Assembly: GCA_038237845.1 (NCBI GenBank)
Contig: JBBRYH010000010.1
Span: 25,692 to 89,691 of the forward strand
Direction of reading: 5' to 3'
Length of the DNA stretch: 64,000 nt
From: Bacteroidia bacterium
GTDB taxonomy: Bacteria; Bacteroidota; Bacteroidia; Palsa-965
The notes under the pieces were generated by a model, which saw only the letters and a program-made list of their open reading frames with translations, ran no database searches and was not told the DNA's origin. The position numbers were made by a program, and so were the translations under genes. Positions 8,120 through 40,907 of the stretch are shown here, in pieces (the stretch's first letter is position 1; each line of letters opens with the position of its first letter).

Positions 8120-11100
8120 TTAATTGTGTTTTGTAATGAGTATTAATGTTTTGATTTCGTCATCCACTTCTACTGTGACTGCTTCTTTTTCAAGAATTTC
8201 ACTCACAAGTTCGAGTGTAGTAGCAAGAGTTTCAGAGCAAATATAATTGAAATTGTTGCTCACAGCAGTAGCAAGTGCCTCGTGTGATTTAATCTTCACA
8301 TCAATACGGTCTGTGACTGCGAAATCATTGTCCTTTCTAAGGTTTTGGATGCGGTTTACCAGCTCCCTTGCCAGACCCTCTTCCTTCAATTCACGGCTTA
8401 ATATTACATCTAATGCAACCGTAAAACGACCATCAATCGCCACCAACATTCCCGGCAAATCGTCTACAAGTATCTCAACCTCAGCCCTTTCAATATTAAT
8501 TGTTTCTCCTTCCAAGGTTAAATCGAAGTTTCCGTTTAGTTCCATGGCAGCGATATCTGCTTGAGAAAAGTTTGAAAATGCTGCCGCCGCCGCCTTCATA
8601 TGCTTCCCAAGCTTCTTTCCCAATAATTTAAAATCAGGCTTGATTTTTTTTAAAAAAACACCTGATTCTGTGACATATTCTAGGGTTTTAACGTTGGTTT
8701 CAGCCAAAATAAGGTCTTTTACAAGCTCCAAACGGCCTTGAAACTGCTTGTCCAGCAGTGGAATCATGATACGATTTAAGGGCTGACGAACACGGATATT
8801 CACTTTTTTGCGCAAAGAAAGAACAAGAGAAGAAAATTTTTCTGCGAGTTCCATGCGTTCCTCTAATTCTTTATCAATTAGTTTTTCATTTGTTTTCTTA
8901 AGTAAAGTAAGATGAATTGATTCTGGTTTTGATGCTTTATTTTTTGCACCATCTTTCAGATTAGCATAAAGCCACTCTGCAAAAAACGGAGCGAATGGAC
9001 TCATCAATTGCGATACAGTATCGAGACACTCATATAATGTTTCATAAGCAGCTTGTTTGTCACGTGTCATTTCGCCTTTCCAGAAACGTCGACGCGAGAG
9101 ACGAACGTACCAATTGGATAAATGTTCATCTACGAAATTTTCAATTGCACGTGCAGCAGGAGTCGGATCATAATCATCCAAACGTTCAGTTACTAATTTA
9201 ACCAATGAATTTAAACGGGAAATTAACCAACGATCCAATTCCCCTCGTTCAGCAACAGGAACCATATTGTTTTCATCGAATTCGAAATCATCAATGTTCG
9301 CATAAAGAACAAAAAACCCATAGGTATTATATAGCGTTCCTAAAAATCCACGTTGCGATTGTACGATTCCTTCTGTATCAAATTTTAAATTGTCCCAAGG
9401 TGAAGCATTGGTAACCATGTACCATCGTGTTGCATCAGGGCCATATTTTTTTAAAGTTTCAAAAGGATCAACACCATTGCCCAAACGTTTGGACATTTTA
9501 TTTCCATTCTTATCCAATACAAGTCCGTTTGAAATAACGTTTTTGTAAGCGACAGAATCAAAACACATGGATGAAATAGCATGCAGCGTATAAAACCATC
9601 CGCGAGTTTGATCGACACCTTCTGCAATAAAATCAGCGGGGAAATATTTTTTCTGATCGATCAATTCTTTATTCTCGAACGGATAATGCAATTGAGCATA
9701 TGGCATCGATCCTGAGTCAAACCAAACGTCAATTAAATCGGGTTCGCGGAATAGTTTCTTTCCATTTCGCTCGAGAAAAATATCATCTGCATAAGGACGA
9801 TGCAAATCAAATGTCTTGTAATTCGTTGCAGAAAAATCTCCAGGATTAAAATTCTCCAATGGATTTTTTGACATGAAACCGGCTTTCATCGCGCGCTCAA
9901 TTTCATTTTTCAATTCTTCAGCAGATCCAATACAAACAATTTCTGTATGATCTTCACTTTTCCAAATCGGCAATGGAATTCCCCAAAAACGGGAACGCGA
10001 TAAATTCCAGTCCTGTAAATTATTCAACCATTCTCCGAAACGACCAGTTCCAGTTGATTCCGGTTTCCAGTTGATTGTTTTATTTAATTCCGCCATCCGC
10101 TCTTTTTTCGAAGAGGCTTTTACAAACCAAGAGTCAAGCGGATAATATAAAATCGGTTTGTCAGTTCTCCAGCAATGCGGATAATTATGCTCGTAAGTTT
10201 CTTTCTTGAATAATTTTCCTTCGTTCTGCAATTTCAAAACGATACGTTCATCTACACTCAGGTAATTCATCTTGGAAGTATCCTTGATGAGGAATTGCAT
10301 GTAGCCTTTTTGTTTCGCTAATTCTTCTACTTTTTCTTTTTCATTCAGGTAGTCTTCTTTTACAAATTCACCTGCTAAACCGAATTGCGCATCTTTTACT
10401 TCGGGACGAAATTTTCCACGAAGATCAACGAGCGGAACTGCTTTTTTATTTTCATCAAGCACGAGCATAGGAGGGATGTCTGCAATTTTCGCTACACGCA
10501 TATCATCCGCCCCGAAGGTTGGTGCAATATGTACAATACCTGTTCCGTCTTCTGTAGAAACAAAATCTCCAGCAATTACTTGAAATGCTTTATCTGCATT
10601 TTCATAGGGTAATGCATAAGGAAGAAGTTGCTCGTATTTTAATCCGACGAGGTCGGAACCCGACATTTCTCCGGCAATATGAAATGGAATTGCTTTATCT
10701 CCGGCTTTATAATCTTCAAATTTTAATTCAGCATTCTTCTCGGGAAAAAACTTTGAGCAAAGATCTTTTGCAAGAACAACTCTGATTTCCTGATGTGTAA
10801 ATGGATTGTAAGTTTTAACTTCAACATAACGGATATTATTTCCAACTGCAAGAGCAGTATTCGATGGCAAGGTCCACGGAGTCGTCGTCCAAGCTAAAAT
10901 GTAAAAATTATTTATTGGGTAATTAGTACGAGCACTATCAATTTTTTTTAAGAATGACTGAAAGATGTCGTTCTCTGTTATCTTAAACATCGCTGTCGCC
11001 GTGCGATCTTTCACCGAACGATAACATCCCGGTTGATTAATTTCATGTGAAGACAAACCAGTTCCTGCTGCAGGAGAATAGGGTTGAATGGTATATCCCT

Positions 11101-11623
11101 TGTACATCAAATTCTTTTTGTACAAATCCTGTAACAACCACCAAACACTTTCGATGTATGTGTTTTCATAGGTAACATACGGGTGTTGCATGTCTACCCA
11201 ATAACCCATCATACGCGTAAGTTCTTCCCATTTGTCGGTGTACTTCATTACTTCATTACGACAAGCAGTATTATATTCCTCAATAGAAATTTTCTTTCCA
11301 ATATCTTCTTTGGTAATGCCAAGTGTTTTTTCAACACTCAATTCGATTGGCAATCCGTGTGTATCCCAACCTGCTTTACGTTTAACTTGTTTTCCTTTTA
11401 AAGTTTGGTATCGACAGAAAATATCTTTCAGTGCGCGACCCATTACATGGTGAATGCCGGGCATTCCATTTGCAGAAGGAGGACCTTCATAAAACACAAA
11501 AGGTTCTGCTCCCTCACGTGAAGAAACACTTTTCTCAAAAATTTTATTTTTATCCCAGTCTGCTAAAACCTTTTCCGCTATTTCCGGAAGATTCAAAGAA
11601 GAGAATTCCTTGTACTTTTTCAT
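8120..11623 (-). CDS. ileS: Isoleucine--tRNA ligase (type 2 IleRS). Start taken at MKKYKEF, not at the upstream start reported in the ORF track.
   Basis: HIGH-region PSANGMPGIHHVMGRALKD, KMSKR motif (NGNKMSKRLGN), about 1167 aa, C-terminal type-2 extension. Confidence 0.95.
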   Translation of the reverse strand: MKKYKEFSSLNLPEIAEKVLADWDKNKIFEKSVSSREGAEPFVFYEGPPSANGMPGIHHVMGRALKDIFCRYQTLKGKQVKRKAGWDTHGLPIELSVEKTLGITKEDIGKKISIEEYNTACRNEVMKYTDKWEELTRMMGYWVDMQHPYVTYENTYIESVWWLLQDLYKKNLMYKGYTIQPYSPAAGTGLSSHEINQPGCYRSVKDRTATAMFKITENDIFQSFLKKIDSARTNYPINNFYILAWTTTPWTLPSNTALAVGNNIRYVEVKTYNPFTHQEIRVVLAKDLCSKFFPEKNAELKFEDYKAGDKAIPFHIAGEMSGSDLVGLKYEQLLPYALPYENADKAFQVIAGDFVSTEDGTGIVHIAPTFGADDMRVAKIADIPPMLVLDENKKAVPLVDLRGKFRPEVKDAQFGLAGEFVKEDYLNEKEKVEELAKQKGYMQFLIKDTSKMNYLSVDERIVLKLQNEGKLFKKETYEHNYPHCWRTDKPILYYPLDSWFVKASSKKERMAELNKTINWKPESTGTGRFGEWLNNLQDWNLSRSRFWGIPLPIWKSEDHTEIVCIGSAEELKNEIERAMKAGFMSKNPLENFNPGDFSATNYKTFDLHRPYADDIFLERNGKKLFREPDLIDVWFDSGSMPYAQLHYPFENKELIDQKKYFPADFIAEGVDQTRGWFYTLHAISSMCFDSVAYKNVISNGLVLDKNGNKMSKRLGNGVDPFETLKKYGPDATRWYMVTNASPWDNLKFDTEGIVQSQRGFLGTLYNTYGFFVLYANIDDFEFDENNMVPVAERGELDRWLISRLNSLVKLVTERLDDYDPTPAARAIENFVDEHLSNWYVRLSRRRFWKGEMTRDKQAAYETLYECLDTVSQLMSPFAPFFAEWLYANLKDGAKNKASKPESIHLTLLKKTNEKLIDKELEERMELAEKFSSLVLSLRKKVNIRVRQPLNRIMIPLLDKQFQGRLELVKDLILAETNVKTLEYVTESGVFLKKIKPDFKLLGKKLGKHMKAAAAAFSNFSQADIAAMELNGNFDLTLEGETINIERAEVEILVDDLPGMLVAIDGRFTVALDVILSRELKEEGLARELVNRIQNLRKDNDFAVTDRIDVKIKSHEALATAVSNNFNYICSETLATTLELVSEILEKEAVTVEVDDEIKTLILITKHN

Positions 11624-11745: not shown

Positions 11746-13158
11746 CTATGGAAACGCCTCGAATAGGTTGAATTTTGTCATTTGAGAAGATATCGGCATC
11801 CTCCTCAAATTTTTTGACGAAACGAAGTCTGATTTTGCAAATAGATGCCATTTAATAGCTTCGTTATCGTTTGTTGTTAAGCTTAAGCCATGATATCGAT
11901 TGGCATAATTAGTCAAAGACCAATTGGTATACAAAGTAGTACTTATTGTAATTTCTGAATTTTCGCCGGTGACGGATGCAACCATTGCCAACTCATTAAT
12001 TGTAGCCTCGTCGCGTTTAATGATGTGTTTATTTGAAATATAAATAACAGAAATAATGACAAAAAGAATTACAAAAAGCGAAATAATTCGTACCCCTATT
12101 TGGATTTTGGAAAATGTATAAATCAATTCTGTCATCCGCTTGGCGCCATGCTGAGCATATATGGAAAGTGCAAAAGCAAAAAAAGGCAGTGAAGTGGCAA
12201 GGTAAAATGGACGCTGCTCAAGTGTAATCATTAATGGGAATGAACCTGCAATTCCGCAGCAAAGGAAAAAGTTAGCAAATTCTATTTGTAGCAATGGACC
12301 TTTTTTTCGTCCTGACAAATAAAACAAGAAGGAAATAAGTGCTGCTGGTGCAAGATTAATAAGCAATTGATCTAACAAATATAAATGTGAAGAAGTGGTA
12401 TCATGGAAATGGGCAAACGTTACGGTCAATCGCGAATGAAAATATTCGACAAAACTATTTCTTGCCGGCTAGTAAAGGATTACAAAGAAAATAAAAAGTA
12501 GTAGCACAGAAGAAACGATAAAAGAAGTGATCATCATTTTAAAGAAGGAGTAATTTTTGAAAAATAACCAAAAGAAAAACGGGCTTGTTATCAGAAATAA
12601 ACCTTGTGGACCTTTTGTCATTCCGGTGCAGACCAGAAAAAATCCGGCGATCAGGAAATGATAATATTTTGAATTCGGTTTCTGAAAAGCAATAATCATG
12701 TGCAAGATTGTTGCTAATGTAAAAACAATCATTGTACATTCTTCCAGGTTATTGACGAATGAACTCAACGTTTGTGGAATTGCAAACCAAAGCAGAAAGG
12801 GTAACCAGAACAAATTGTTTTCTGGAAATATCCTTTTCCAAATCCTAGCCATTAAAAATGCTGAGAGAATTATAAGTACAGTGGAATAAATCCGTTCTGT
12901 AATAAATCCGTCACCAAAAATTCGAAAGAAAATTCCTTGAAGAAAAAACATTAAAGGAGGCTGCTCATGAAAATGGGGATGCATAAATGCACTGAAATGA
13001 GGGTCCCAAAAGTTTCCAATTCCGTGTGCAAGATTTTTGCTTACTGCAGCATACAATATGCCATCCGTAAACATACCATCCATAAAAAGGGTTGGAAGCA
13101 CCATTGCAGAAATAATGGCAATGACAAATAGCAAAATGGTGTAATTTGATTTTTGCAA
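11746..13158 (-). pseudogene. ArnT/PMT-family (GT-C, GT83/GT39-like) polyprenol-phosphate-dependent glycosyltransferase split by a single in-frame TAG at 12469-12471 (minus strand). Halves of 229 and 227 aa.
   Basis: Both ORFs share one frame. The N-terminal half has the first-loop motif DGMFTDGILYAAVSKNLAHG (compare ArnT DETRYAEISREM). The downstream half only begins at a TTG (+ strand 12427-12429 is caa). Read-through translation RARNSFVEYFHSRL joins the two halves. Confidence 0.5.
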
Positions 13159-13224
13159 AGCGATTAATTCTTAAAACACAACTTTATTCAGCCTGCAAAT
13201 AAATGCGATTGAAAATAATATTTA

Positions 13225-13641
13225 TCAAACAGTTGCAATAACCTTTAATTCAATGCCGATAGGAGTAGGCAAACAATTGATCTCAAGCGTAGTTCTGCAA
13301 GGAGGATTTTCTGAAAAATATTCGGCCCACAATTTATTATAGATTTGGAAATCGTCTTTCATATTCGTGAGGAATACAGTAACGTCAATAATTTTATCCC
13401 AACTGCTTCCCGCATCTTCAAGAATAAATTTCACATTTTGAAAAACACTTCTACACTGTTTTTCAATATCATAAGAAGTAATTTTTCCATTTGAATCTAA
13501 TTCAACACCAGGAATTATTTTTGTTCCTTTTTCTCTTGGGCCAACTCCCGACAAAAAAAGAAGATTCCCCACACGTTTTGCATGTGGGTAAAGTCCAACA
13601 GGCTCAGGAGCTTTAGAAGAATTAATAGAATTTTCAGACAT
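13225..13641 (-). CDS. ridA: RidA/YjgF-family reactive-intermediate deaminase
   Basis: 138 aa. Conserved C-terminal region DVTVFLTNMKDDFQIYNKLWAEYF...PCRTTLEI. Confidence 0.75.
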   Translation of the reverse strand: MSENSINSSKAPEPVGLYPHAKRVGNLLFLSGVGPREKGTKIIPGVELDSNGKITSYDIEKQCRSVFQNVKFILEDAGSSWDKIIDVTVFLTNMKDDFQIYNKLWAEYFSENPPCRTTLEINCLPTPIGIELKVIATV

Positions 13642-13714: not shown

Positions 13715-15454
13715 TTATTCCTGTTTTATAAACTTCGAACGTGAAACTATATTTCCGTTTTCAAACAATGAAACAAAGTAAACTCCTGAAGGAAGATTTG
13801 CAATATTCAGATTGATTTCTGAAACATTTTCTAACTGTTGTAATAAAACTTCCTGTCCAACAATAGAAGTGATTACAATTTTATCCCCGCTTTCTATGCC
13901 AGTGAGGTGTAATTCATCTTTTGCAGGATTTGGGAAAACATGAAGCGAACCTAAATTGTTTTCATCTATTCCTACATCAAGTGCCCAAGGATAGGACAGA
14001 AACGAACAGCCAAATGCATTTGTTACTTCCAAAGAATAAACGCCGTTTCCATTTGTAAGATAGTTAACCATATCGGATGTTTCTCCTGCTAAAGGATTTC
14101 CATTCAAATACCATTGCATTGTATTTCCCGTTGTGTCAATTGTAACAAATGAGTTTGATGTAATTGAAATTGCAGGATGCCATAGTGAATCACAGAAAAT
14201 GGCTGTGACGGTATCCGAAAAAGAAGTGCAACCAAAAGCGATAATTGCAATCACATAATAATCGCCAGAAATAAATACGGTGTCGGTTGGCGCATTCTGT
14301 CCGAGTTGCGGACTTCCATTTAAATACCACTGTAAACTATATTGAAGGGAATCTGTATGTAACGTGTGATTCAGAGAATCATAAACAATATTTGCAATAC
14401 CAGGATAACCATAAACGTGAATTGTATCATTCGTAATTACAGAAGGTACAGGGGGGACGACCGTATGATTTACCGTATAATTGACAACAGAAATATTTGC
14501 TGCGCATCCGGTACATCCATTCAATGACATGGTATGATTTCCAACAAAATCATCAGCACCAAAGCCAAATTCAAAATCATCTTCATCCCAAACTTCAAGT
14601 ACATATGTATTCAAAGGATTCATATTAATATTTAATCCGTACCAACCGACAGGAGGAAACTGATCGGCGAAATAACTGGATTGATAAACAGGAGTTCCGT
14701 TTTCTTTTACAATAACAAACAAATCTGGATTTCCATCAATAGGATAACCCCATACTGAAGCAGAGTTTTGAATGGATGTGATGTCAATAGATGTAAGTGT
14801 GTAAAAATTATTTGTTGTTGTGTCGGCATATGCTTCATAATGTACGACGTAATCACCAGGTACATTATATACTTGCGGCACCGGATTTTCTGCAGTCGTC
14901 TGATTCGTATTTCCGAAATCCCAATAATAACCTTGTAAGCCCGGATTATTATTGACGAAATTAACCGTGATAGGAGAACATCCTGTAAAACCTGCCATGC
15001 TAAATCCATTATTCGAAGTATTCGAAGTGGCAGGAAGTACATTAATATAAATCTGAAAATTTACTGGAATGCCGGTTGCAATGGTGAGATCAGCAATCAC
15101 GGTAACGTCGATTGCATAAAATCCCGCAAGCAATGGAGTTCCAGAAACATGAACACAACCGTATTGATTAACCCATGGATCGTAATTACATCCAGTTTGA
15201 TAATTACTGCATTGCCAGCTTAGTCCAACAGGAAGGGTGACAGTAAGAATTTGAAAATTTGTAAAATCATATCCTCCTGTATCCAACGGCATGACAAAAG
15301 TTGCATCGGTCGAGTAAGGAACACCGACAGTAGCTGTTGGAAGCGTATCAGGATATATTCCTGTTTGCGTATAAGTGAGATTTGGCGTGCAGGGCTGTGC
15401 GAAGAATTTGATTCCTAAAAACAGAAATACGATTGCCAGTGTAATTTTTTTCAT
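13715..15454 (-). CDS. Secreted T9SS cargo protein with a type-A C-terminal sorting domain. Start taken at MKKITLAIVF.
   Basis: Signal peptide. C-terminus LHVFPNPAKDELHLTG...IVITSIVGQEV...PSGVYFVSLFENGNIVSRSKFIKQE is a classic Por_Secre_tail. Confidence 0.75.
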   Translation of the reverse strand: MKKITLAIVFLFLGIKFFAQPCTPNLTYTQTGIYPDTLPTATVGVPYSTDATFVMPLDTGGYDFTNFQILTVTLPVGLSWQCSNYQTGCNYDPWVNQYGCVHVSGTPLLAGFYAIDVTVIADLTIATGIPVNFQIYINVLPATSNTSNNGFSMAGFTGCSPITVNFVNNNPGLQGYYWDFGNTNQTTAENPVPQVYNVPGDYVVHYEAYADTTTNNFYTLTSIDITSIQNSASVWGYPIDGNPDLFVIVKENGTPVYQSSYFADQFPPVGWYGLNINMNPLNTYVLEVWDEDDFEFGFGADDFVGNHTMSLNGCTGCAANISVVNYTVNHTVVPPVPSVITNDTIHVYGYPGIANIVYDSLNHTLHTDSLQYSLQWYLNGSPQLGQNAPTDTVFISGDYYVIAIIAFGCTSFSDTVTAIFCDSLWHPAISITSNSFVTIDTTGNTMQWYLNGNPLAGETSDMVNYLTNGNGVYSLEVTNAFGCSFLSYPWALDVGIDENNLGSLHVFPNPAKDELHLTGIESGDKIVITSIVGQEVLLQQLENVSEINLNIANLPSGVYFVSLFENGNIVSRSKFIKQE

Positions 15455-15520
15455 TGCGGTAGATTTCGGGTTATTCAAACATAGTGAATAATGGAGGATT
15501 GTAATATGATTTATACCCAA

Positions 15521-17399: not shown

Positions 17400-18932
17400 T
17401 CACTCAACCTTTTTCTCCAACCATTCAGCAAAATCAAACTGTTTATTCAAAGCAGCCTCATTTGTTTTACGAAAATCTTTTCTTATTCGGGAAATGTATT
17501 TCAGAAAGTCGCCCTTTTTATTTTTCATTAGTTTAGGATCTGACAGCATTCGAATTCCTTCAAGGATAGAAAGTGAATTGTGAAATTGAGCATCCTGCGT
17601 GATAAAACGTTTGGTGGAATTGAATCGGGTTTCAAATAATCGATCATGCGATTCAAATAAAACAAGAAGGTACAAAAGGCGAACATTAATTTTTACTTCC
17701 ATTCTGATGTTCAACTTGCGTTCGGCATTCATGATTTGATTGAGGTACTTTATCGAATTCTTAAAATTATTTGCAAGGAACTCGCACACGGCAATCATAA
17801 ATAATAAATCAAAGATGATCGGATTAAAGTCCAATTCAATTCTTTTAACTATTTGTTCTATCTCCTTTATGAAATGAATCGCGTCATCATATTTGCCCGA
17901 TTTGTAAAAAAGGAATAGTTCACTTTCGGATGTATTGATGAAAACTATTTTTGAAAATACTTCTTTTTTGATTTGATAAATTTCAATAAATTTTTTCTGA
18001 TCCTGAACAATGGAACGCGCCTCCTCGTATTTTTCGAGAAAGCACATGACATTGACAAGGTTGTTTGAGTTTATGTGGTAAATGGAAGAAAGATCCTGAA
18101 TTAATTGAGGAGCATTGTCCATTATTATTTTTATTTTTTTAAAACAATTGTAACGTTTCTGATGCTGATTTTGTACTGCATAAATTAAAGCTTTCGAGGA
18201 TAAATAATAATAATTAATCCAGAAACTTCTTTTGAGAATCTGATTTGGATATGTTGCTTTTAATTTTTTTAATGACTCTTCTAAAAAGGCGTCAACTAGT
18301 TTGCCTTTATTTATTTCTGTTTGTATTTTAAAAGCAATTTGCATCATCTGCGTTTGAATACGCATGATTTCCATAATGTGTATTTCTTCCGCAATACTTT
18401 TATTTAGATTTAGTTCATCTTCATTATTAATGTGAACTAAGGTTTCCCATCGAATCATAATAACCAACAGTGATTGTTTCTCAAGCGCATAGGATTCCGC
18501 TTTTGCCTTCTTAATTATCTTAAGACATTGACGAAAAAGCCCTCGGTTAAACAGGAGCTCAATTGAAATCAGAAAATTAGCATGCCTTGCGAGAAAAGTT
18601 TTTTCTCTGTGATAAGCATTTAAACTTTCGAGTAAATAAGAATAGAGATAGTTTTTTTCTGCAGGAAGATGACGAACGAAAATAGCACCCTCAAATTCAT
18701 TTTTGATTTTGCTCTCATCGTAATTTTCCTGTTTGCTGATCGCATCAAACAAACGAAGAAAATTTTTCGAATCGCCTCCAACATGTCCCGACGCATAGAG
18801 CTTAAAATGCCTTTTTTCAGACATGTTCATGCTTTTGATCAGCTGATGTAAGTCGGAGGCGGCTTTCACGTTAATTTCAGAAGTACAAGAATAATGAGAA
18901 ATATGGTAATAAATATAGGGATTAAAGCACAA
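17400..18932 (-). CDS. Hypothetical all-helical cytoplasmic protein (about 475-510 aa; the true start may be MNMSEKRHF). Divergent from the SprB-like gene. Possible regulator.
   Basis: Long ORF, no TM segments, helical-repeat-like composition. No recognised motif. Confidence 0.45.
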   Translation of the reverse strand: MCFNPYIYYHISHYSCTSEINVKAASDLHQLIKSMNMSEKRHFKLYASGHVGGDSKNFLRLFDAISKQENYDESKIKNEFEGAIFVRHLPAEKNYLYSYLLESLNAYHREKTFLARHANFLISIELLFNRGLFRQCLKIIKKAKAESYALEKQSLLVIMIRWETLVHINNEDELNLNKSIAEEIHIMEIMRIQTQMMQIAFKIQTEINKGKLVDAFLEESLKKLKATYPNQILKRSFWINYYYLSSKALIYAVQNQHQKRYNCFKKIKIIMDNAPQLIQDLSSIYHINSNNLVNVMCFLEKYEEARSIVQDQKKFIEIYQIKKEVFSKIVFINTSESELFLFYKSGKYDDAIHFIKEIEQIVKRIELDFNPIIFDLLFMIAVCEFLANNFKNSIKYLNQIMNAERKLNIRMEVKINVRLLYLLVLFESHDRLFETRFNSTKRFITQDAQFHNSLSILEGIRMLSDPKLMKNKKGDFLKYISRIRKDFRKTNEAALNKQFDFAEWLEKKVE

Positions 18933-19054
18933 TAATGGTTAATCAGAAGTCCAATAATATAGGAATTTTGTACTTGCTCAAAGTGCATGGCGATCTATAT
19001 TTGGTCATCAAAAATTTCCCCGATTTCCAAAACCAAAACCAAAAGCATAATTCA

Positions 19055-22000
19055 ATGAAAAGGTTTCTACTTTCTCTATCCATCTTCACAGCATGTTTTT
19101 TATCTGGATCATTAGATGCACAGATGACCACCTTCCGTTTTACCTACGATGTGGGATTATTCGACATTTCAGGGGGTATGGTTCAAAATCCTGCTGGAGA
19201 ATTTGTTTTTGCAGGGATCAATAATTCCTTCGGACCCTATTATGGAGACGCAGTAAAAATTGATGCATCAGGAACTGTTGTTTGGGCGAAAGCTTACAAC
19301 GGAGGTTTTGCAACGAACATTTCAGATATAAAAAACGTGAGCACTGGGGGATATATTATGACCGGTCAGTCTTCGAGCGCAGGCGGTGGTGCTTTGCTTA
19401 TTCGCATTGACAACGCAGGAGCTGTTTTGTGGGCATTTAAATATCAACTCCCAGACAAACCCGCCGCAAATGCTTCCAATGAATATGGAAATGCAGTAAT
19501 AGAAACTTCTGACGGCGGTTTTCTTGTTGGTGGTGGCGTGGATTATTTCTGGGATGGTGTTAGTCCAACAACAACTGACACAACAAGTGCAATGGGCTTT
19601 AAGGTAAATTCTAGTGGTGTTTTACAATGGAGTAAAGTTTGGACGATTGCAACTGCAAATCCAGATGAACATTATATTAATGATGTTGCCGAATCTGCTG
19701 ATGGATATTTTTTCGTCGGACAATCTTCTGAGGGTACTGGAACATTAAGTAGTAATGGTGATTACCCTAGCAATGCTTTAATTATTAAAACCACAACTGC
19801 AGGTGCATTAACTTATATCCGTAGATGGGGAGCAGGAAATGCTACTTCACAAGGAATTAATGCCGCAACAAAATTAACAACAGGAAATATTTTACTGGGG
19901 GGATTTGATGATGTAAGTGGATTTCTGGTTTCAATTTCTGGTGTTGGTGCTGCGCCTGCAGTTATTTATAATCACCGACTCAATGGGGCACTTTTTGGAA
20001 GTACCTACCTCATTCAGGATATTATGGAATGTGCAGATGGAAATTATTCAATTATTGGAACACAATTGGTTTTTCTTTCAGTCCAATTAAATACCATGAT
20101 CGTTAAATTAAATAGTTCAACGGGCGCATTAATGTTTGGTAGAACTTATGCGCCTATTGGCCTATCCGCAATTTTACCTGAAGGAGGATTGTGCACCGAT
20201 CAAGGTTATTATGTAGTAATGACGGATCAACAGGTTGGTGGATTTAATGCAAATGTTATTCGAACAAATACAGTGGGACAAACAAATGACCCCGCTTCAG
20301 GATGTCCAGGAACAAGTATTAATCCAACTATTGGAACCATTACAGTAACCTTTACAACACCAACAAGTTCAAATTTTAATCTTGCTGTAGGCTCTTCTTT
20401 TTCTCCTGTAGTTACAAATCTTATCCCCGTACGTACGCAACATTGTTTTAATGCACCTTCTGCTCTTAGTGCAACCTCTACTTCAACAAACGTTACTTGC
20501 TTTGGAGGTTGTAATGGAACTGCGACCGCAACTCCTGCAAATGGAACTGCGCCATATACTTATTTGTGGGCTCCAAGTGGGGGGACTGCCGCTACAGCAA
20601 CAGGTCTTTGCGCAGGAACCTACACTTGCACTGTAACAGATGCCGCATCTGTTAGTACAACAACTTCTGTTACTATTACACAACCCGCCGCAACAGTCGC
20701 AACCATCTCTGCAACACCAATTGAATGTAGTACCGGTTGGGCTTATATAACTGTAAATGTTACAAGTGGTGTTGGGCCCTACACTTATGCATGGTCTCCC
20801 AGCGGTGGAAATACAAATGTAGGTCAGGTATTTGTTGCAGGAAATTATACTTGTACAATAACAAACGGAGCAGGTTGTACTAGTACACAAAGCATCACAG
20901 TTGTTCCAGGCCCAGCCCCAACTTGTAGTATTACATCGAGCAGTAACAATTTATGTTTCGGAAATACGAATGGAACAGCAACAGTAACTGCAAGTAGTGG
21001 AATGGGACCTTATACTTATTCCTGGTCGCCAAGTGGCGGAACGGGGGCTACGGCTTCCAATCTTGCTGCTGGAACCTATACAGTAACGGTTACAGATTTC
21101 TTGGGATGTCAAGCCACATCAACTATAGTTATTACTGCTCCATCACAATTGACTTCCACTTCATCCCAAACAAACGTTTTATGTAATGGTGGAAATAATG
21201 GAACTGCAACAGTAGCTCCAACGGGCGGAACTCCAGGTTATACTTATTCATGGGCCCCAAGTGGTGGAACTGCAGCAACTGCAAGTGGACTTGCACCAAA
21301 CACATACACTTGTACAATTACGGACGGAGCAGGTTGTACTACAACACAAAACTTTACAATAACACAGCCTACAGTAATTTCGGCAAGTGCAACATCAACA
21401 CCAACAGGATGTAGTACGAATACAGGCTCAGCAACCTGCACAGCAAATGGCGGAACAGGAATTTTAACCTATAGTTGGGCTCCGTCAGGAGGAACGGCTG
21501 CCACAGCAATTAATCTTGGTGTAGGAAATTATACGGTGACCGTTACGGATGCAAATGGATGTACGAGTACCGCTAATGCATCTATTATAACTGCAGGAGG
21601 ACCAACCGCATCATTACAATCGAGTTCGAATGTCAATTGTTTTGGCTCATCCACAGGAACTGCTTCCGTCACTGCATCTGGTAATTCTCCTTTTACTTAT
21701 TCATGGAGTCCTTCTGGTGGGAATGCTGCAACAGCAAATGGATTGATTGCCGGAGGATATACCTGTACGATCACAGACATTAATGGTTGTGCTTCAACAC
21801 AAAGTGTTTTGATTACAGAACCCACGGCAATTGTTGCAAGTGCGTCTTCAACGCCAACAGGATGTAGTGCAAGTACTGGTTCTGCAACATGTACTGCTAA
21901 TGGCGGAACAGGTTCCTTAACTTACAGTTGGTCGCCATCTGGCGGAACAAGCGCCACAGCAAATAATCTTGCGGCAGGACCCTATGTTGTGACAATTACA

Positions 22001-23461
22001 GATGCCAACGGATGTACAACAACTGCGAATACAACTGTAACTAGTGTTGGAGGCCCAACAACATCTGTACAGACAACAACTAACGTTGCTTGTTTCGGGA
22101 ACAACACTGGCGCGTCAACAATTACTGCTAGTGGTAATGGACCACTTACTTACAGTTGGGCACCAATTGGCGGAAATGCGGCAACAGGTGCAAATTTATC
22201 AGCAGGAACATATACAGTCACTGTTACGGATATCAATGGTTGTGTTTCAGCACAAACTGTAACAATTACTGAACCGACTGTTATCGCCCCTTTCACTTCT
22301 TCGAATCCTGCAACTTGTGGTAACACAAATGGTGATGCAACAGTTAGTGTTACAGGAGGCACAGGACCTTATACCTATTTATGGAACAATTCACAAACTA
22401 CCGCAACAATTTCAAATCTTGCAGGAGGTTCTTATAATGTAACTGTAACCGATGCAAACGGATGTACTTCAACTGCAACTGTAAACGTAACTAATACGGG
22501 CGCACCAACAGTAAGTTTGCAGTCATCTTCCAACGTTTCTTGTTTCGGTGGAACAACAGGATCAGCAACAGTCCTTGTAAGTGGCGGATCATCGCCTTAC
22601 ACATATGCATGGTCACCTAGTGGAGGAACAAGTGCAAGTGCAACAAATCTTGGAGCGGGTACTTACACCATTACAGTAACAGGAAGTGATGGTTGTACTC
22701 AAACACAAACAGTAACATTGACACAGCCAACAGCTATTGCATTAACTTCTAATGCCGTTGCTGAAAACTGTGGTTCAGCTGATGGAAGCGCAAGTGTTGC
22801 TGCAAGTGGAGGAACACCTGGCTATACTTATGTATGGAGTAATGCAGCAACAAATGATTCAATTTCAAATCTTTCTGCCGGATCTTATTCTGTAACCGCA
22901 ACAGATGCAAACGGATGTACAACTTCTTCAACAGTTGTTGTTACCAATAACAGCACAGCAGTTGCCAACGCAGGAGCATCCGTTACGATTACTTCTGGAC
23001 AAACAGTTCAATTACTTGGAACAGGTGGCGTAACGTATAGTTGGACACCATCAGGAACCTTATCCTGCAGTAATTGTCAGAATCCGGTTGCCTCGCCTAC
23101 TGCAACAACTATTTATATGCTAACTGTTACAGATTCAAACGGATGTACGGATACGGACACCATCACGGTCTATGTTGACATTGCGTGCGGTGAAGTTTAT
23201 GTTCCAAATGCGTTTTCCCCGAATGGAGATCATCAGAACGATATGTTTTATGTAAGAGGTAATTGTATAAAATATCTTGACTTCTCTATTTATAATCGTT
23301 GGGGCGAAAAAGTTTTCTACACTGCTGATCCGGCAATGGGATGGGACGGAACTTGGAGAAACGTTGCATGTGAAAATGCAGTCTTTACTTATTATTTAAA
23401 AGCCACACTATTGGATGGAACAGAAATCGATCGACAAGGAAATATTTCACTTGTAAAATAA
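19055..23461 (+). CDS. SprB-repeat cell-surface adhesin (about 1469 aa): N-terminal beta-propeller-like region, about 12 SprB repeats, and a T9SS type-B CTD.
   Basis: Signal peptide MKRFLLSLSIFTACFLSGSLDAQ. Repeating units CFGxxNGTATxxxxGGTxPYTYSWxPSGGTxATAxxLxAGTYTxTVTDxNGC. C-terminus VYVPNAFSPNGDHQNDMFYVRG...FSIYNRWGEKVFY. Confidence 0.85.
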   Translation: MKRFLLSLSIFTACFLSGSLDAQMTTFRFTYDVGLFDISGGMVQNPAGEFVFAGINNSFGPYYGDAVKIDASGTVVWAKAYNGGFATNISDIKNVSTGGYIMTGQSSSAGGGALLIRIDNAGAVLWAFKYQLPDKPAANASNEYGNAVIETSDGGFLVGGGVDYFWDGVSPTTTDTTSAMGFKVNSSGVLQWSKVWTIATANPDEHYINDVAESADGYFFVGQSSEGTGTLSSNGDYPSNALIIKTTTAGALTYIRRWGAGNATSQGINAATKLTTGNILLGGFDDVSGFLVSISGVGAAPAVIYNHRLNGALFGSTYLIQDIMECADGNYSIIGTQLVFLSVQLNTMIVKLNSSTGALMFGRTYAPIGLSAILPEGGLCTDQGYYVVMTDQQVGGFNANVIRTNTVGQTNDPASGCPGTSINPTIGTITVTFTTPTSSNFNLAVGSSFSPVVTNLIPVRTQHCFNAPSALSATSTSTNVTCFGGCNGTATATPANGTAPYTYLWAPSGGTAATATGLCAGTYTCTVTDAASVSTTTSVTITQPAATVATISATPIECSTGWAYITVNVTSGVGPYTYAWSPSGGNTNVGQVFVAGNYTCTITNGAGCTSTQSITVVPGPAPTCSITSSSNNLCFGNTNGTATVTASSGMGPYTYSWSPSGGTGATASNLAAGTYTVTVTDFLGCQATSTIVITAPSQLTSTSSQTNVLCNGGNNGTATVAPTGGTPGYTYSWAPSGGTAATASGLAPNTYTCTITDGAGCTTTQNFTITQPTVISASATSTPTGCSTNTGSATCTANGGTGILTYSWAPSGGTAATAINLGVGNYTVTVTDANGCTSTANASIITAGGPTASLQSSSNVNCFGSSTGTASVTASGNSPFTYSWSPSGGNAATANGLIAGGYTCTITDINGCASTQSVLITEPTAIVASASSTPTGCSASTGSATCTANGGTGSLTYSWSPSGGTSATANNLAAGPYVVTITDANGCTTTANTTVTSVGGPTTSVQTTTNVACFGNNTGASTITASGNGPLTYSWAPIGGNAATGANLSAGTYTVTVTDINGCVSAQTVTITEPTVIAPFTSSNPATCGNTNGDATVSVTGGTGPYTYLWNNSQTTATISNLAGGSYNVTVTDANGCTSTATVNVTNTGAPTVSLQSSSNVSCFGGTTGSATVLVSGGSSPYTYAWSPSGGTSASATNLGAGTYTITVTGSDGCTQTQTVTLTQPTAIALTSNAVAENCGSADGSASVAASGGTPGYTYVWSNAATNDSISNLSAGSYSVTATDANGCTTSSTVVVTNNSTAVANAGASVTITSGQTVQLLGTGGVTYSWTPSGTLSCSNCQNPVASPTATTIYMLTVTDSNGCTDTDTITVYVDIACGEVYVPNAFSPNGDHQNDMFYVRGNCIKYLDFSIYNRWGEKVFYTADPAMGWDGTWRNVACENAVFTYYLKATLLDGTEIDRQGNISLVK
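20440..22960 (+). repeat. Array of about 235-nt tandem repeats encoding SprB repeat units (GC-richer, Gly/Thr/Ala codons).
   Basis: Periodic protein repeats. They generate several spurious antisense and alternate-frame ORFs (20483-20890, 21244-21441, 22150-22362). Confidence 0.7.
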
Positions 23462-30857: not shown

Positions 30858-30934
30858 TGGTGGAGAATATCGGAGTCGAACCGATGACCTTCTACATGCC
30901 ATGCAGACGCTCTAGCCAGCTGAGCTAATCCCCC
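30858..30934 (-). tRNA. tRNA-Ala (anticodon GGC), 77 nt including the encoded CCA
   Basis: Manual fold: acceptor GGGGGAU/AUUCUCC with G3:U70, D-stem GCUC/GAGC, anticodon stem UCUGC/GUAGA, loop AUGGCAU, T-arm AUCGG-UUCGACU-CCGAU, 3' ACCA. ORF 30746-30937 overlapping it is spurious. Confidence 0.85.
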
Positions 30935-31036
30935 CATTTTGCAGGTTTCAAAAGTAGATATTATTAGTATACTACATATAGGTTATTGCCACAGCATTCA
31001 GGTTCTGTACTATTGTATAAACTAATAACCCTAAAT

Positions 31037-31294
31037 ATGTTTATCGCTGTAAAACACACCATCAGTAACCCCGCTGAATTCTGGTCTCGCGCACAAGCCT
31101 CCTTGCCAAATCTTCCTGCAGGAATTAAAATTCATTCCGTTATGCCGAATGCCGCAATGGATGATGCAGTTTGTTTGTGGGAAGCAAATTCACTTGAACA
31201 GTTGAACGAATATCTTGAAGGTAAAACAGGAGACGTTTCGCATAACCATTACATTCCAGTGGATGAAAAGAATGCAATGGGTTTGCCTAAATAG
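31037..31294 (+). CDS. Small hypothetical protein (about 86 aa from MFIAVKHT)
   Basis: ORF only. Followed by a weak hairpin ATTCCT...AGGAAT plus T-run (31345-31375). Confidence 0.4.
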   Translation: MFIAVKHTISNPAEFWSRAQASLPNLPAGIKIHSVMPNAAMDDAVCLWEANSLEQLNEYLEGKTGDVSHNHYIPVDEKNAMGLPK

Positions 31295-31418
31295 ATTTGT
31301 TTGTAATCCTGTTAAATTCCTTTCTTTGCTCGTATTCCTAGAGTAGAGATAAGGAATTTTTCTTTTATATAAATTTAGCTAGCTAAGAAGATTGTAGATT
31401 TGGAAAAAGAATTTTTAG

Positions 31419-31985
31419 GTGAAACGGATTTTGTTGCCAGTAATTATTTTATTTTCCATTCACTCCAATGCACAATGGTTTGTAGGAGTAAAACTTATGG
31501 GCATTTCTTTCCATCCTGGGAAAAATACGAATGGTGCATTGTTTAACTATACGCTGGGCCGGCATAATAGAATTGCGTTAAATTTCGGCTTGGCGATGGG
31601 CCTCGAATACAAATTCAATAATTATATTTCTATAAAACTTGATCAGGCTGCTTTTAAAGATTGTGCTGGAAAATTTGCAGGAATGACAATGTTCAATTTA
31701 CGTTACACTCAACAACTTGGAAAACTAGGTGACGGAAGCGTAGGGCTTGGACCATTTTTCTTTTATCGCAAAAACTGGAATGCAATAAATGGCTATGAAG
31801 ATGAAGGCTTTTTCAAAATCTCAAAAAACAATAAGTGGCAAACAAAATTTGTGTGGTATGGAGGAGAGCTCGAATATAACTATCCATTAAGAAAAGGACT
31901 CGATTTATCGACTAATATCTTGCCGGGAATTCCTGTTGTATTTGCAATAACTTCTGGAGTTCGATTTTCTGACCCTGAAAAATGA
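31419..31985 (+). CDS. Hypothetical small outer-membrane beta-barrel protein (188 aa)
   Basis: Signal peptide MKRILLPVIILFSIHSNAQ. Alternating aromatic pattern. Confidence 0.5.
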   Translation: MKRILLPVIILFSIHSNAQWFVGVKLMGISFHPGKNTNGALFNYTLGRHNRIALNFGLAMGLEYKFNNYISIKLDQAAFKDCAGKFAGMTMFNLRYTQQLGKLGDGSVGLGPFFFYRKNWNAINGYEDEGFFKISKNNKWQTKFVWYGGELEYNYPLRKGLDLSTNILPGIPVVFAITSGVRFSDPEK

Positions 31986-32044
31986 GCAAGCAACAATATT
32001 GATAATTTCTCTGCTTGTTAATTTTCACCTCTTTCATTAGCAAC

Positions 32045-32467
32045 TTAACCCTGAGATTTTCTTTTGTAGTAAATCTGTTCACCTTTCACTTTAATTACCA
32101 ATTGATCACCAATTACTTCGTAAATGAAACGGAAGGTCTTTCCATTATTTGCTGGATTGCTGCATCCCGAAAGCGTGCCGAATACAGTTGCACCATTTGA
32201 ATAGGCTAGAAAATAGCAATGGCCCGTTAATCCTTTGTCTGCATCGTTTTCAATAGCACCTACTGATAATGTATCATTAGGAGAAAATCGGATAAAAATA
32301 AAATCTGTTTCGAGAATCGGAGAATAGGGCGAACCTGTAGGATCTTTTACCCATTCCCATTCGCCAATCAAAGGATCTTTTGATGTCAATAATTTATATT
32401 TTGGAGCCTGTGCCGAAAGCGTTGTAGTGAAAAGGACGATGAACAATACCCAAAAGAAGTTTTTCAT
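32045..32467 (-). CDS. Hypothetical secreted protein (140 aa)
   Basis: Signal peptide MKNFFWVLFIVLFTTTLSAQA. Confidence 0.5.
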   Translation of the reverse strand: MKNFFWVLFIVLFTTTLSAQAPKYKLLTSKDPLIGEWEWVKDPTGSPYSPILETDFIFIRFSPNDTLSVGAIENDADKGLTGHCYFLAYSNGATVFGTLSGCSNPANNGKTFRFIYEVIGDQLVIKVKGEQIYYKRKSQG

Positions 32468-32603
32468 GGTATTAAATATAAGTAAAGAAATGGATTGTCC
32501 TTATTGGAAGATTCCTCCGACTGTAAATCACCTTCATTGGCAACTGAATACTAGGTATATTTACAGGCTTTTATGTCAATGAGCACATCAGCATGATTTT
32601 AAA

Positions 32604-33056
32604 ATGGCCTCTTTAAAGCACCGTCTCGACATTGAATACGATTATGATTTTTTCTTAGCGGGAATTTCCTGCCATGAAAAGCCATATCGCCTTTGTTGGG
32701 CACTCAATCGCGCAATAGGTCATGAATTAGTGCAGAAAGAACCACTTTCGATCGCCTTGAAAAAAAGCGATCCTGCAAGCGATTTTCCGATTTTCAAATT
32801 AGCCAATAAAGAAAATGACACTTCTTTTTGTCTGATGGCAAACAAAACAGAAACAACGGATGCCGAAGGTCATAGAGGAATTGGACTGCTGATTCCGGAA
32901 CAAAATCAAGCCGATTATTTTTTTATCGTTCAAGGTCCATTCACCGAACATGACCTGGAACAGATGATGAAAAGCATTCGGGAAATTCCATTCGTCCAAT
33001 TAATTTATCGCATCAACCCTTCTATACTCAAATCAAAAGAAAATTTATTATTCTGA
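32604..33056 (+). CDS. Hypothetical protein (150 aa), possibly the IPExxxVDY-like family that sits upstream of pyk in Bacteroidota
   Basis: Contains LIPEQNQADYFFIV. Tight 9-nt spacing to pyk. Confidence 0.45.
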   Translation: MASLKHRLDIEYDYDFFLAGISCHEKPYRLCWALNRAIGHELVQKEPLSIALKKSDPASDFPIFKLANKENDTSFCLMANKTETTDAEGHRGIGLLIPEQNQADYFFIVQGPFTEHDLEQMMKSIREIPFVQLIYRINPSILKSKENLLF

Positions 33057-33065
33057 AAATAAAAT

Positions 33066-34529
33066 ATGTCAGCTAGAGAAAATACAACCGAACGCGTACA
33101 ATATAATCGCACAAAAATTGTCGCAACACTTGGACCTGCTTCGTCTTCACCAGAAATGTTGGAAGAAATGGCAAATGCAGGGTGTGATGTTTTCCGTATA
33201 AATTTTTCTCATGGCGATTATTCTGCTGTAGAAGAACAAATTAAAAATATACGTGCAATTAACAGAAAACTGGGAACGCATGTTTCTCTATTAGGGGATT
33301 TGCAAGGCCCAAAATTGAGAGTTGGCGAAATGGAAAACAATGGGGTTGAATTAGTCGATGGTGCGGAATTTCTGTTCACCACGAATAAAATGATCGGTAC
33401 CGCACAAAAAGCGTTTATGACCTATCAGCAATTTCCAAAAGATGTGAAAGCCGGTGAAATGGTTTTAATTGACGATGGAAAATTAGTGTTGCGCGTCATC
33501 TCTACCAATGGAGTTGATGAAGTCAAAACAATTGTAGAACATGGAGGAATACTTTCTTCAAAAAAAGGAGTTAATCTTCCGAATACAAAAGTTTCTTTGC
33601 CATGCCTTACAGAAAAAGACATTAAAGATCTTGAATTTGCATTGAGTCATCAGTTTGATTGGATCGGACTTTCGTTTGTTCGTTCGGGTGCTGATATTAT
33701 TGAGCTCAAGCATCTCATTAAAAAGATGGACCCTAACAGTAAATCAAAGGTCATTGCGAAAATCGAAAAGCCAGAAGCTATTTTAGACATCGATAATATC
33801 ATTCGTGAAACAGATGCATTAATGGTTGCGCGCGGCGATTTAGGAGTAGAGGTTCCAATGCAACGTGTGCCTGTTTTGCAGAAAATGTTGGTGCGAAAAT
33901 GTTTGGAAGCTTCAAAGCCGGTCATTATCGCGACACAAATGATGGAGAGTATGATCACCAATATTTCTCCAACACGTGCGGAGGTAAGTGATGTTGCAAA
34001 TTCAGTAATGGATGGTGCAGATGCAGTAATGTTGAGCGGAGAAACTTCTGTGGGTAAACATCCAGCAAAAGTAATTGAAGCGATGTCAAAAATCATTACA
34101 CAAGTTGAGGAAGAACACAACATTTATTACCTGGATAGAAAACCCGTTTTTTCTATCAACGAACGTTATCTTTCTGAAAACATCTGCTATGCTTCAACCA
34201 CATTAGCAAAGCAAGTGGATGCAACCGCAATTGTAACAATGACACATTCGGGTTACACGGCATTTCGTGTGGCAAGTTATCGACCTAAGGCAAATATTTT
34301 TGTCTTCACTGATAATTATAGTATTCTTTCACAACTTAGCTTAGTCTGGGGTGTCCGTGGATTTTATTACGACAAAAATATTTCAACGGATCATACCATC
34401 GCTGATATTAAATTCATTCTGAAAAAGGATGGTTATATTGTTCAGAAAGATTTTATCATCAATATTGCCAGTATCCCTTTAAGTGAAAAAGGAACTACGA
34501 ATATGATTAAGTTGACGGAAGTAGAGTAG
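33066..34529 (+). CDS. pyk: Pyruvate kinase
   Basis: RTKIVATLGPAS, FRINFSHGDY, MVARGDLGVEVP, 487 aa. Confidence 0.95.
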   Translation: MSARENTTERVQYNRTKIVATLGPASSSPEMLEEMANAGCDVFRINFSHGDYSAVEEQIKNIRAINRKLGTHVSLLGDLQGPKLRVGEMENNGVELVDGAEFLFTTNKMIGTAQKAFMTYQQFPKDVKAGEMVLIDDGKLVLRVISTNGVDEVKTIVEHGGILSSKKGVNLPNTKVSLPCLTEKDIKDLEFALSHQFDWIGLSFVRSGADIIELKHLIKKMDPNSKSKVIAKIEKPEAILDIDNIIRETDALMVARGDLGVEVPMQRVPVLQKMLVRKCLEASKPVIIATQMMESMITNISPTRAEVSDVANSVMDGADAVMLSGETSVGKHPAKVIEAMSKIITQVEEEHNIYYLDRKPVFSINERYLSENICYASTTLAKQVDATAIVTMTHSGYTAFRVASYRPKANIFVFTDNYSILSQLSLVWGVRGFYYDKNISTDHTIADIKFILKKDGYIVQKDFIINIASIPLSEKGTTNMIKLTEVE

Positions 34530-34669
34530 GAGCGTTATTTTTTCTTTTCTATATATATATTTCCCGCTTTCACCTCGACGGCGCTCGGCTTTATCGGGGC
34601 TATTTATTGCATTGCCAATATCTATTTAAAAAAATTAGACTAAATTGCATTACAAACAAAAAAAACATC

Positions 34670-35623
34670 ATGAAAAAAATTTACTCTTTAATAGTATTTG
34701 CATCAATCGGTTTTACAGCGCATAGCCAGTCTTTCTGGACAGAAGATTTCGGAACAGGTTGCAACCAGGGAAATCTTGCTAGCGCATACGCTGGTTCAAA
34801 TGGATCCTGGACAATTGCAAGTACAGGTACAAATGACCCCGACGCAAATCCTTGGTTTGTAAGCGCAACAGAAGCAGGAACTGGCGTTGGCAATTGTGGC
34901 GCTGGTTGCGGTAGTAATTCAACACTTACAAATAGAACATTGCATGTCGGTAGTACTGCTATTCCTGCATTAGGTCTCCCTGCCGATCAAGGCGCATCTT
35001 ACAATGCTGGTGGTTTGTGCAGTAGCTTTGCTATTTGTGTAATTACAAATTCACGTGCAGAATCTCCTGTCATCAATTGTGCAAATAAAACGAACATCAC
35101 ATTAACATTCAATTATTTTGAAAATGGAGATCTTGCAAATGATGATGGCTCTGTTTGGTTTTACGATGGTACAACATGGGCATTATTACAGAATACAGCT
35201 AAAACAACACTCGGCAATTGTGCTCCTCAAGGAAAATGGACAGCAATTAGCATTGTGCTTCCTGCTAGTGCAAACAATAATCCAAATGTGAAAATCGGAT
35301 TTAACTGGACCAATAACGATGATGGTGTTGGAACAGATCCTTCCTTTGCGGTGGATGATATTGCACTTACTCAATCACCATCAGGTATTGCAACTATTAC
35401 AAATAATCAACTAAACGTTGTTGTATTAGCAAATGGCCAGATAACAATCATTCCGAATGGTCAGGCCTACAAAATGCTTGCGGTTTATGATATGGTTGGA
35501 AGAGAAATAAAATTCACACAAACAGAAAATACAATTTCACTCGGCAATACTGCTCCGGGAATTTATATTATCAATTTGGATGTGAACGGAACGCGTGTGG
35601 TGAAGAAAGTAGTTATGAATTAG
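34670..35623 (+). CDS. Secreted T9SS cargo protein with a type-A CTD. Start taken at MKKIYSLIVF.
   Basis: Signal peptide. C-terminus PGIYIINLDVNGTRVVKKVVMN. Confidence 0.7.
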   Translation: MKKIYSLIVFASIGFTAHSQSFWTEDFGTGCNQGNLASAYAGSNGSWTIASTGTNDPDANPWFVSATEAGTGVGNCGAGCGSNSTLTNRTLHVGSTAIPALGLPADQGASYNAGGLCSSFAICVITNSRAESPVINCANKTNITLTFNYFENGDLANDDGSVWFYDGTTWALLQNTAKTTLGNCAPQGKWTAISIVLPASANNNPNVKIGFNWTNNDDGVGTDPSFAVDDIALTQSPSGIATITNNQLNVVVLANGQITIIPNGQAYKMLAVYDMVGREIKFTQTENTISLGNTAPGIYIINLDVNGTRVVKKVVMN

Positions 35624-35640
35624 AAAATATTTCATTTAAT

Positions 35641-35676
35641 AAAAAGGCGTCTCAATAATTGGGGCGCCTTTTTTAT
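35641..35676 (+). terminator. Intrinsic terminator: AAAAGGCGtc...GGCGCCTTTT hairpin plus T-run
   Basis: Stem of about 9 bp (35644-35651 / 35663-35670) followed by tttttt. Confidence 0.6.
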
Positions 35677-35689
35677 TGGAACAGAGTGA

Positions 35690-35852
35690 ATAAGAAAAAA
35701 ATAAATCAACTGTGTTTCATCAAAAAGTTGAGGCCCTTCAGTACAACAAAGAAGGCGGCGCAGTTTGTCCGGAAAACTGGACCAAAGGCAAAACAGGTAT
35801 GTGCGCTACACATGATGGTGATGCAACGAATTTGGCAGACGCGAAGAATTAA
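35690..35852 (+). pseudogene. ahpC: Degenerate C-terminal remnant of a 2-Cys peroxiredoxin (AhpC-like), split across two frames
   Basis: Frame A (35721-35852): QKVEALQYNKEGGAVCPENWTKGKTG...* (compare AhpC [17 protein letters not shown]). Frame B just upstream: LRPFSTTKKAAQFVRK (compare [15 protein letters not shown]). No upstream catalytic region. Confidence 0.5.
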
Positions 35853-35960
35853 GAAGTTTCATCCTTTAAGGTACATTTCCAATAATATTCACTTGGTGCT
35901 GGATTCTCTATCCGGCACTTTTTTATATTTTCCACCAATTGGTTTTCTAACTTTACAGCA

Positions 35961-37283: not shown

Positions 37284-37473
37284 CCAGCATTCTTACTTAG
37301 TAAATTGACAGAGCAAATAAAAATTTATTGCTCGAATATTCCTACCGAAATGTCTAGTTCGAAAATAAAGATGGAGGTAAATGTAAACTGGATGGCGAAT
37401 GGTTTATTTACTTCAAAGAAAAAGCGTTGATCAAGGAACTTCCCTCAGCGTTTATTATGAATTTGTTTTTTAT

Positions 37474-39593: not shown

Positions 39594-40439
39594 TTATTTC
39601 ACAACTTTCATCGTCATGCGAATATCCACCACTGGACGAGCATTTTTGTCGACTTGTTGCGCAGCAATTTTGTCAATGGTTTCCATACCACTTACCACTT
39701 CACCAAAAACAGTATAATTTCCATCTAGATGAGGTGTTCCTCCTGTTGTACGATAAACTTTTCTTTGCTCTTCTGTAATTACACGATGTGGTGTTTTTTC
39801 AAATAAAGAATCAATTTTCGGATTTATAATCGTAGAGAAAAAATTCAAACTATCAGGATTTCCTTGTGTTTGATATCGCGATTGCGCCCGAATAAAAGCC
39901 GTTTTGATAGGCAGGTTTGCTGGAATTTCCATTAAACTGTTAAACAGTTTTTGTTTTACTTGTTGATCCATATTCGATTGAAGAACATTTAATACAGAAT
40001 CAGTAAAAGTGCGTCCTTGTACAATATAGAATTGACAGCTCGATGATTCTTTCTTTGGATTTACATCATCACCTTGTCTGGCAGCAGCCAAAGCTCCTTT
40101 TTTGTGAAATAATGAAGGATTAAATTCTGCAGGAATAGTGTATCCAAGTTCACCATTTCCCAACATTGTACCAGGTTTAGCCCTTTTGGAGTCCACATCA
40201 CCCCCTTGAATCATGAATTGAGCTATGACCCGATGGAATAGGGTACTATCAAGCGTTCCGTCCTTTACAAGCTTTAGAAAGTTATCACGATGCTTTGGTG
40301 TTTCATCATAAAGCACAATTTTAATATCACCTAAGTCTGTGTGTATCAATACTTTCGCTCGTTTATCGGCGGAAATATACGAGGTGAAAAAAGGAAGGGC
40401 GGCTAAAGCCAAAAAAGGAAGTAATCTTCTCGTGACCAT
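39594..40439 (-). CDS. ppiB: Cyclophilin-type peptidyl-prolyl cis-trans isomerase, secreted (start at MVTRRLLPF)
   Basis: FHRVIAQFMIQGGD, YTVFGEVVSGMETIDKIA. Confidence 0.85.
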   Translation of the reverse strand: MVTRRLLPFLALAALPFFTSYISADKRAKVLIHTDLGDIKIVLYDETPKHRDNFLKLVKDGTLDSTLFHRVIAQFMIQGGDVDSKRAKPGTMLGNGELGYTIPAEFNPSLFHKKGALAAARQGDDVNPKKESSSCQFYIVQGRTFTDSVLNVLQSNMDQQVKQKLFNSLMEIPANLPIKTAFIRAQSRYQTQGNPDSLNFFSTIINPKIDSLFEKTPHRVITEEQRKVYRTTGGTPHLDGNYTVFGEVVSGMETIDKIAAQQVDKNARPVVDIRMTMKVVK

Positions 40440-40886: not shown

Positions 40887-40907
40887 AAGAACTTTCTCTG
40901 AAATAAT

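Follow-up and report, generated by a model that had tools for sequence, protein, structure and literature searches.

The amber codon that divides a membrane glycosyltransferase gene in this Bacteroidia contig, from an uncultured bacterium of soil type, is a private and very recent change of GAG to TAG, and nothing about it is programmed, whether the change lies in the DNA or only in the consensus. The window, i.e. the entire 64,000-nucleotide stretch of contig JBBRYH010000010.1 that was analysed, and the features discussed here are laid out in Table 1. The finding is an ordinary single-base premature stop in an uncharacterised GT-C gene; ordinary nonsense-mutation pseudogenes and MAG consensus errors show the same pattern, and the GT-C case has no feature that distinguishes it from them. 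It is on balance probable, though not strongly so, that the change is a genuine loss-of-function allele specific to one strain, and that the intact allele occurs in the same natural population.

The gene reads as one minus-strand frame of 470 codons from TTG 13158 to its terminal TAG in the ORF listing, the sequence and the translation, and its sole interruption is the TAG at 12469-12471. The coding strand across the premature stop is ...TTT GTA ATC CTT TAC TAG CCG GCA AGA..., which translates as ...FFVILY*PARNSFVEYFHSRLTVTF..., and in the joined protein codon 230 is flanked as FVILY-x-PARNSFVEYFHSR. Sequence and translation bear out the first-pass annotation, which had read ORFs 12469-13158 and 11746-12429 as sharing a frame and split only by TAG, and the N-terminal motif that it singled out, DGMFTDGILYAAVSKNLAHG, is found at residues 27-46. 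It also holds, as was pointed out there, that the downstream half has no ATG and a listed start of TTG, at 12429, which 13 more sense codons separate from the stop; the upstream half likewise opens without an ATG, on TTG 13158. The joined length of about 456 aa proposed at that stage is corrected to 470 codons from TTG 13158, or 452 from ATG 13104. Scanned in all six frames, the window has no other pair of stop-to-stop segments, each of at least 80 codons, with a single TAG between them.

TTG 13158 is probably the true start of the gene. The first transmembrane helix comprises residues 3-24 in the homologs and in the AlphaFold2 model and requires the TTG start; the ATG at 13104 is probably a false start, because most of this helix (TM1) would be lost with it.

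Table 1. Positions of the features discussed, and of the Logan alignments, in window coordinates
Feature	Position	Strand	Basis or extent
Whole GT-C glycosyltransferase gene (PMT_2, ArnT-like fold), 470 codons including internal TAG	11746-13158	-	translation, homologs, family profile, AlphaFold2 model
N-terminal half, 229 codons: TM1, invariant DGMFxDG loop (D32), PMT_2 domain (residues 66-223)	12472-13158	-	Pfam, alignment, profile
ATG taken as start by both gene callers (NCBI record, Logan)	13104-13106	-	gene calls
Premature amber codon TAG, codon 230 (first base at 12471)	12469-12471	-	sequence and Logan comparison
C-terminal half, 240 codons: further membrane helices and C-terminal alpha/beta domain	11749-12468	-	alignment, profile, AlphaFold2 model
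Normal stop of the GT-C gene, TAG	11746-11748	-	sequence
ridA (Ribonuc_L-PSP), upstream neighbour of the GT-C gene	13225-13641	-	conserved gene order
ileS, downstream neighbour (start is the ATG giving MKKYKEF)	8120-11623	-	conserved gene order
Logan alignment	1746-30887		29,142 bases, 9 mismatches
Logan alignment	30861-37301		6,441 bases, 0 mismatches
Logan alignment	39829-57525		17,697 bases, 0 mismatches
Logan alignment	57496-64000		6,505 bases, 2 mismatches

Sequence comparison confirms, far beyond chance, that the two halves are one gene. A search with the joined sequence retrieved 85 proteins, nearly all of them 465-485 aa long and aligned at 30-40% identity over 85-100% of the query; their source labels are [quoted passage not shown] or "glycosyltransferase family 39 protein". 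The nearest relative besides the sister allele described below is only 40% identical. Against a family profile (HMMER) built from an alignment of 28 full-length relatives, the N-half matches positions 3-229 (E 3.5e-99) and the C-half positions 233-469 (E 3e-70), i.e. consecutive positions of a single profile, and the possibility, raised at first pass, that the halves come from unrelated families is thereby removed. In the 28-sequence alignment the window protein crosses the junction without a gap and keeps all 31 family-invariant residues, including 11 beyond the stop (Y239, R243, P308, L309, Q315, R316, F318, Y319, D383, Y418 and R421). Since all 31 are retained, the 11 downstream ones included, the lesion is young. 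Codon 230 itself falls in a variable column, where the multiple alignment has mainly Thr and pairwise tblastn shows Pro, Glu or Asp, and in a three-residue turn between helices 205-228 and 232-248 of the AlphaFold2 model. No further GT-C relative was detected in the window with the family profile or by tblastn with full-length homologs.

A scan of GTDB species representatives yielded 274 loci encoding a GT-C relative, the best 80 of which were kept; these are nearly all labelled as Bacteroidota MAGs, with a few under other phylum names. Each of the best 80 of the 274 loci is covered by one single tblastn HSP, and none has a stop at residues 200-260.

The designation ArnT-like GT-C given at first pass finds support at the level of the fold, in a PMT_2 match above threshold and in ArnT as the best structural match. 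Pfam PF13231 (PMT_2) scores 44 bits with the N-half and 39.4 bits with the joined protein, against a gathering cut-off of 26.1. The AlphaFold2 model of the joined protein, computed with the family alignment as input (pLDDT 90.1, pTM 0.90), comprises a membrane domain of many helices and, starting near residue 384, a C-terminal alpha/beta domain. When this model was compared with the PDB by Foldseek, ArnT 5F15 was the best match (E 2.9e-8, query-normalised TM 0.69), and the top 22 matches were all GT-C enzymes: ArnT 5F15/5EZM, followed by AglB, ALG12, ALG9, AftB, DPY19, PMTs and Emb proteins. The structural alignment with ArnT (GT83; PDB 5F15/5EZM) spans both halves, and the likeness includes the order of a membrane multi-helix domain and a small C-terminal soluble domain as well as an acidic residue in the loop after TM1. 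In the window protein this residue is D32 of the DGMFxDG motif, which directly follows helix 3-24, in the first loop past TM1, and is invariant in 28 of 28 sequences; its role is presumably catalytic.

Other features differ from ArnT: identity with the window protein is just 10-11%, the latter is about 70 residues shorter, and its gene lies between ridA and ileS and not in an arn operon. The ArnT equivalog model (NCBIfam NF009784) gives 24.7 bits, under its cut-off of 567, and no PDB sequence matches the family profile at E<=1. With regard to PF13231 and the family 39 annotations in Bacteroidota, the N-half passes the Pfam threshold and the annotated homologs are uncharacterised environmental proteins. 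"ArnT-like GT-C" is correct for the predicted fold and the superfamily, and not for orthology; the gene is no ArnT ortholog.

An unsplit allele is present in the Logan assembly of run SRR19962011. By exact-sequence look-up, one 90% protein cluster holds both half-proteins of the NCBI record and a 452-aa Logan protein. The half-proteins, from the same 90,468-bp contig, are of 211 aa (N-half, from ATG 13104) and 227 aa (C-half); the Logan protein consists of both halves joined, with Glu replacing the stop, and is otherwise identical. On the coding strand, position 12471 is T in the window versus G in Logan, giving TAG versus GAG (Glu). The gene thus has what marks a null allele: one premature stop, a frame colinear with that of the homologs, and an intact allele in a near-identical genome. 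A third copy of the amber site was sought with exact DNA patterns (N at the variant base) among GTDB species representatives and JGI metagenomes, and none was found.

Over the 59,728 distinct bases compared, the Logan contigs and the window agree at 59,717 (99.98%), leaving 11 differences and no indels. Two tight clusters account for eight of the 11, with six packed into 71 bp and the other two into 14 bp; of the eight, five are synonymous. The first cluster, at 14204-14274, places six differences in the T9SS cargo gene 13715-15520 (minus strand), four synonymous and two not (F/S and I/N), as would fit a second haplotype or recombination over a short tract; the second comprises two differences 13 bp apart in a 772-aa gene, one of them synonymous. 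Clustered and mostly synonymous differences of this kind suggest real co-existing haplotypes rather than random error. Two coding differences are isolated, 12471 and 8653. The latter, in ileS (minus strand), is also a G-to-T difference, the window having TTA (Leu) and Logan GTA (Val); since related IleRS proteins have Val in 10 of 11 cases and Ile in the other, the Leu of the window is derived. Both isolated differences are thus window-specific, derived, non-synonymous and G-to-T on the coding strand.

A further difference lies at window 19028, where CAA in the window corresponds to TAA in Logan at codon 32 of a long SprB-like ORF, 18935-23461 (plus strand). Logan's call of this gene begins at about 19055, which removes 40 codons and leaves 1468 aa. 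This later start is probably correct, and the difference probably intergenic, because only 2 bp separate ATG 18935 from the start of the divergent gene 17400-18932.

Under the preferred reading of a real null allele, we infer that the T at 12471 is truly in the DNA and not just in the consensus. A single recent G-to-T transversion at codon 230 would have converted GAG (Glu) to TAG in an otherwise intact GT-C gene; ribosomes would halt at the TAG and release a 229-residue N-terminal fragment containing TM1, the DGMFxDG loop and the PMT_2 region, without the later membrane helices, the C-terminal domain and the 11 downstream invariant residues. In cells with the TAG allele this fragment would most likely be inactive, because the later helices and the C-terminal domain are missing.

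The explanation that survives best beside this one is an assembly or base-call artefact, by which the DNA has GAG, the T is a consensus error of one assembly, and the gene is intact and functional. Such an error could arise from low coverage, from reads with G-to-T oxidative damage or from a polishing mistake, and we regard it as a serious possibility, somewhat short of an even chance. It agrees with the GAG and identical flanks of the independent SRR19962011 assembly, with the recording of TAG-split proteins from the NCBI record only and from no Logan assembly, and with the lack of decay in the downstream half. At other places, however, the two assemblies clearly draw on different haplotypes, so that a real variant is equally natural, and the site (CTTTAC[T/G]AGCCGG) has no homopolymer or repeat. 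The pair of isolated differences at 12471 and 8653 bears on both readings: that both are derived, non-synonymous G-to-T changes, unlike the clustered and mostly synonymous ones, favours error and also fits oxidative-damage-type consensus errors at low coverage, but two consensus errors per ~60 kb would be high for short-read assemblies at normal depth.

Of the three origins offered at first pass for the stop, nonsense mutation and base-call or assembly error both remain, and read-through falls, there being a sense codon in the sister assembly and in the relatives. It is very unlikely that a real TAG allele still gives active enzyme, by way of a suppressor tRNA elsewhere in the genome or assembly of a split GT-C, or, in a milder version, that it represents the on/off state of a fast-diversifying surface-glycan gene. 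Phase variation at the amber site was considered and rejected, as no repeat or homopolymer occurs there.

Slighter still is the probability that a suppressor tRNA, or a sequence context that favours read-through, allows TAG to be decoded efficiently enough to give the full-length enzyme. The downstream half is perfectly preserved and the base after the TAG is C, and TAG followed by C is not the strongest termination context; yet TAG-C also forms the regular end of this gene and of several others in the window. The first pass had named a sense codon at 12469-12471 in reads or orthologs as a refutation, and the stop is indeed not conserved: Logan has GAG, and the best 80 of the 274 related loci are open, which counts against programmed read-through. 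Moreover, the window encodes a single tRNA, tRNA-Ala(GGC), and no suppressor tRNA, and the predicted folding of the 121 nt that surround and follow the stop is no more stable than that of shuffled sequences (z = -0.36).

Just as improbable is a functional split gene, whose halves would be translated separately, the second from TTG 12429, and assemble in the membrane as an active enzyme. The break does fall in a short inter-helix turn and in a variable column, with the TTG 13 codons downstream of the stop, but no start signal is evident, and initiation at 12429 would leave out the invariant Y239 and R243; the sister allele is in one piece, and all relatives are single-chain, both the 85 proteins and the best 80 of the 274 loci. 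The least probable reading of all, that this organism reads TAG as a sense codon (through reassignment of the stop codon or as pyrrolysine), has the in-frame TAG in its favour and nothing more, and is refuted because neighbouring conserved genes terminate normally at TAG: of the 48 large non-overlapping ORFs in the window, 12 end in TAG (both GT-C halves counted; about 11 other genes), pyruvate kinase ends in TAG at 487 aa exactly as do all 11 members of its cluster, and one single long ORF pair in the window is split by TAG. For practical purposes, both codon reassignment and programmed read-through can be dismissed.

The first pass had also described the amber-split gene as the third damaged member of one enzyme family in the window. 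This is not supported at the sequence level, as the two other damaged genes, 56100-57897 and 58299-59954, match neither PMT_2 nor the GT-C family profile; profile comparison of the GT-C family with them showed no relationship, and Pfam gave no matches. Both damaged genes are reproduced by both assemblies. The first is listed as two overlapping plus-strand ORFs in different frames, 56100-56384 (94 aa) and 56362-57897 (511 aa), which appear to form a single gene for a membrane protein, with its frame shifted by +1 near GATGGGAAAACTTG (about 56365-56378); the frameshift is reproduced independently, because the Logan contig is 100% identical there. The 511-aa part has a weak match to NCBIfam NF047440 (LA_3751/LA_3752 putative glycosyltransferase) that begins only at profile position 103. 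The second, 58299-59954 (551 aa), is an N-terminally truncated paralog of 54055-56016, beginning at about residue 105 of the latter, and is preceded by an opposite-strand ORF of 99 aa, 57965-58264, for which the Logan gene call (96 aa) has a T9SS Por_Secre_tail sorting domain and no cargo domain. Logan has the same 57965-59954 arrangement, and its contig break at 57496-57525 is as expected at a repeat. The damaged membrane-protein genes lie within a glycosylation cluster that includes the plus-strand GT2 genes 59951-60742 and 63062-63787 and, at 60747-63065 (plus strand), a 772-aa DUF6311-type membrane protein.

The order ridA / GT-C / ileS is kept in all 14 loci that also carry ileS among the best 80 of the 274. 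The locus 11746-13641 of the window was compared with that of relatives designated L004-L013, L035 and L044. Relative to L005 and L007 the window has 87% identity in IleRS and 92-95% in RidA, and only 38-39% in the GT-C protein, while L005 and L007 share 59% GT-C identity with each other. Similarity of the GT-C protein does not track that of IleRS: L012 and L005 have 74% IleRS and 57% GT-C identity, L044 and L005 80% and 38%. These identities suggest divergent GT-C allelic types at a single ridA/ileS locus.

For annotation, the region is best entered as one 470-codon gene from TTG 13158, flagged as disrupted or a possible error, and not as two hypothetical proteins. The gene represents a GT-C family with an ArnT-like fold that is widespread in Bacteroidia MAGs and has no characterised member. 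That the GT-C gene at the conserved ridA/ileS locus evolves far faster than its neighbours is of mild interest for cell-surface biology, and the amber allele, if real, would be a minor case of one strain within an uncultured Bacteroidota population losing a membrane glycosyltransferase.
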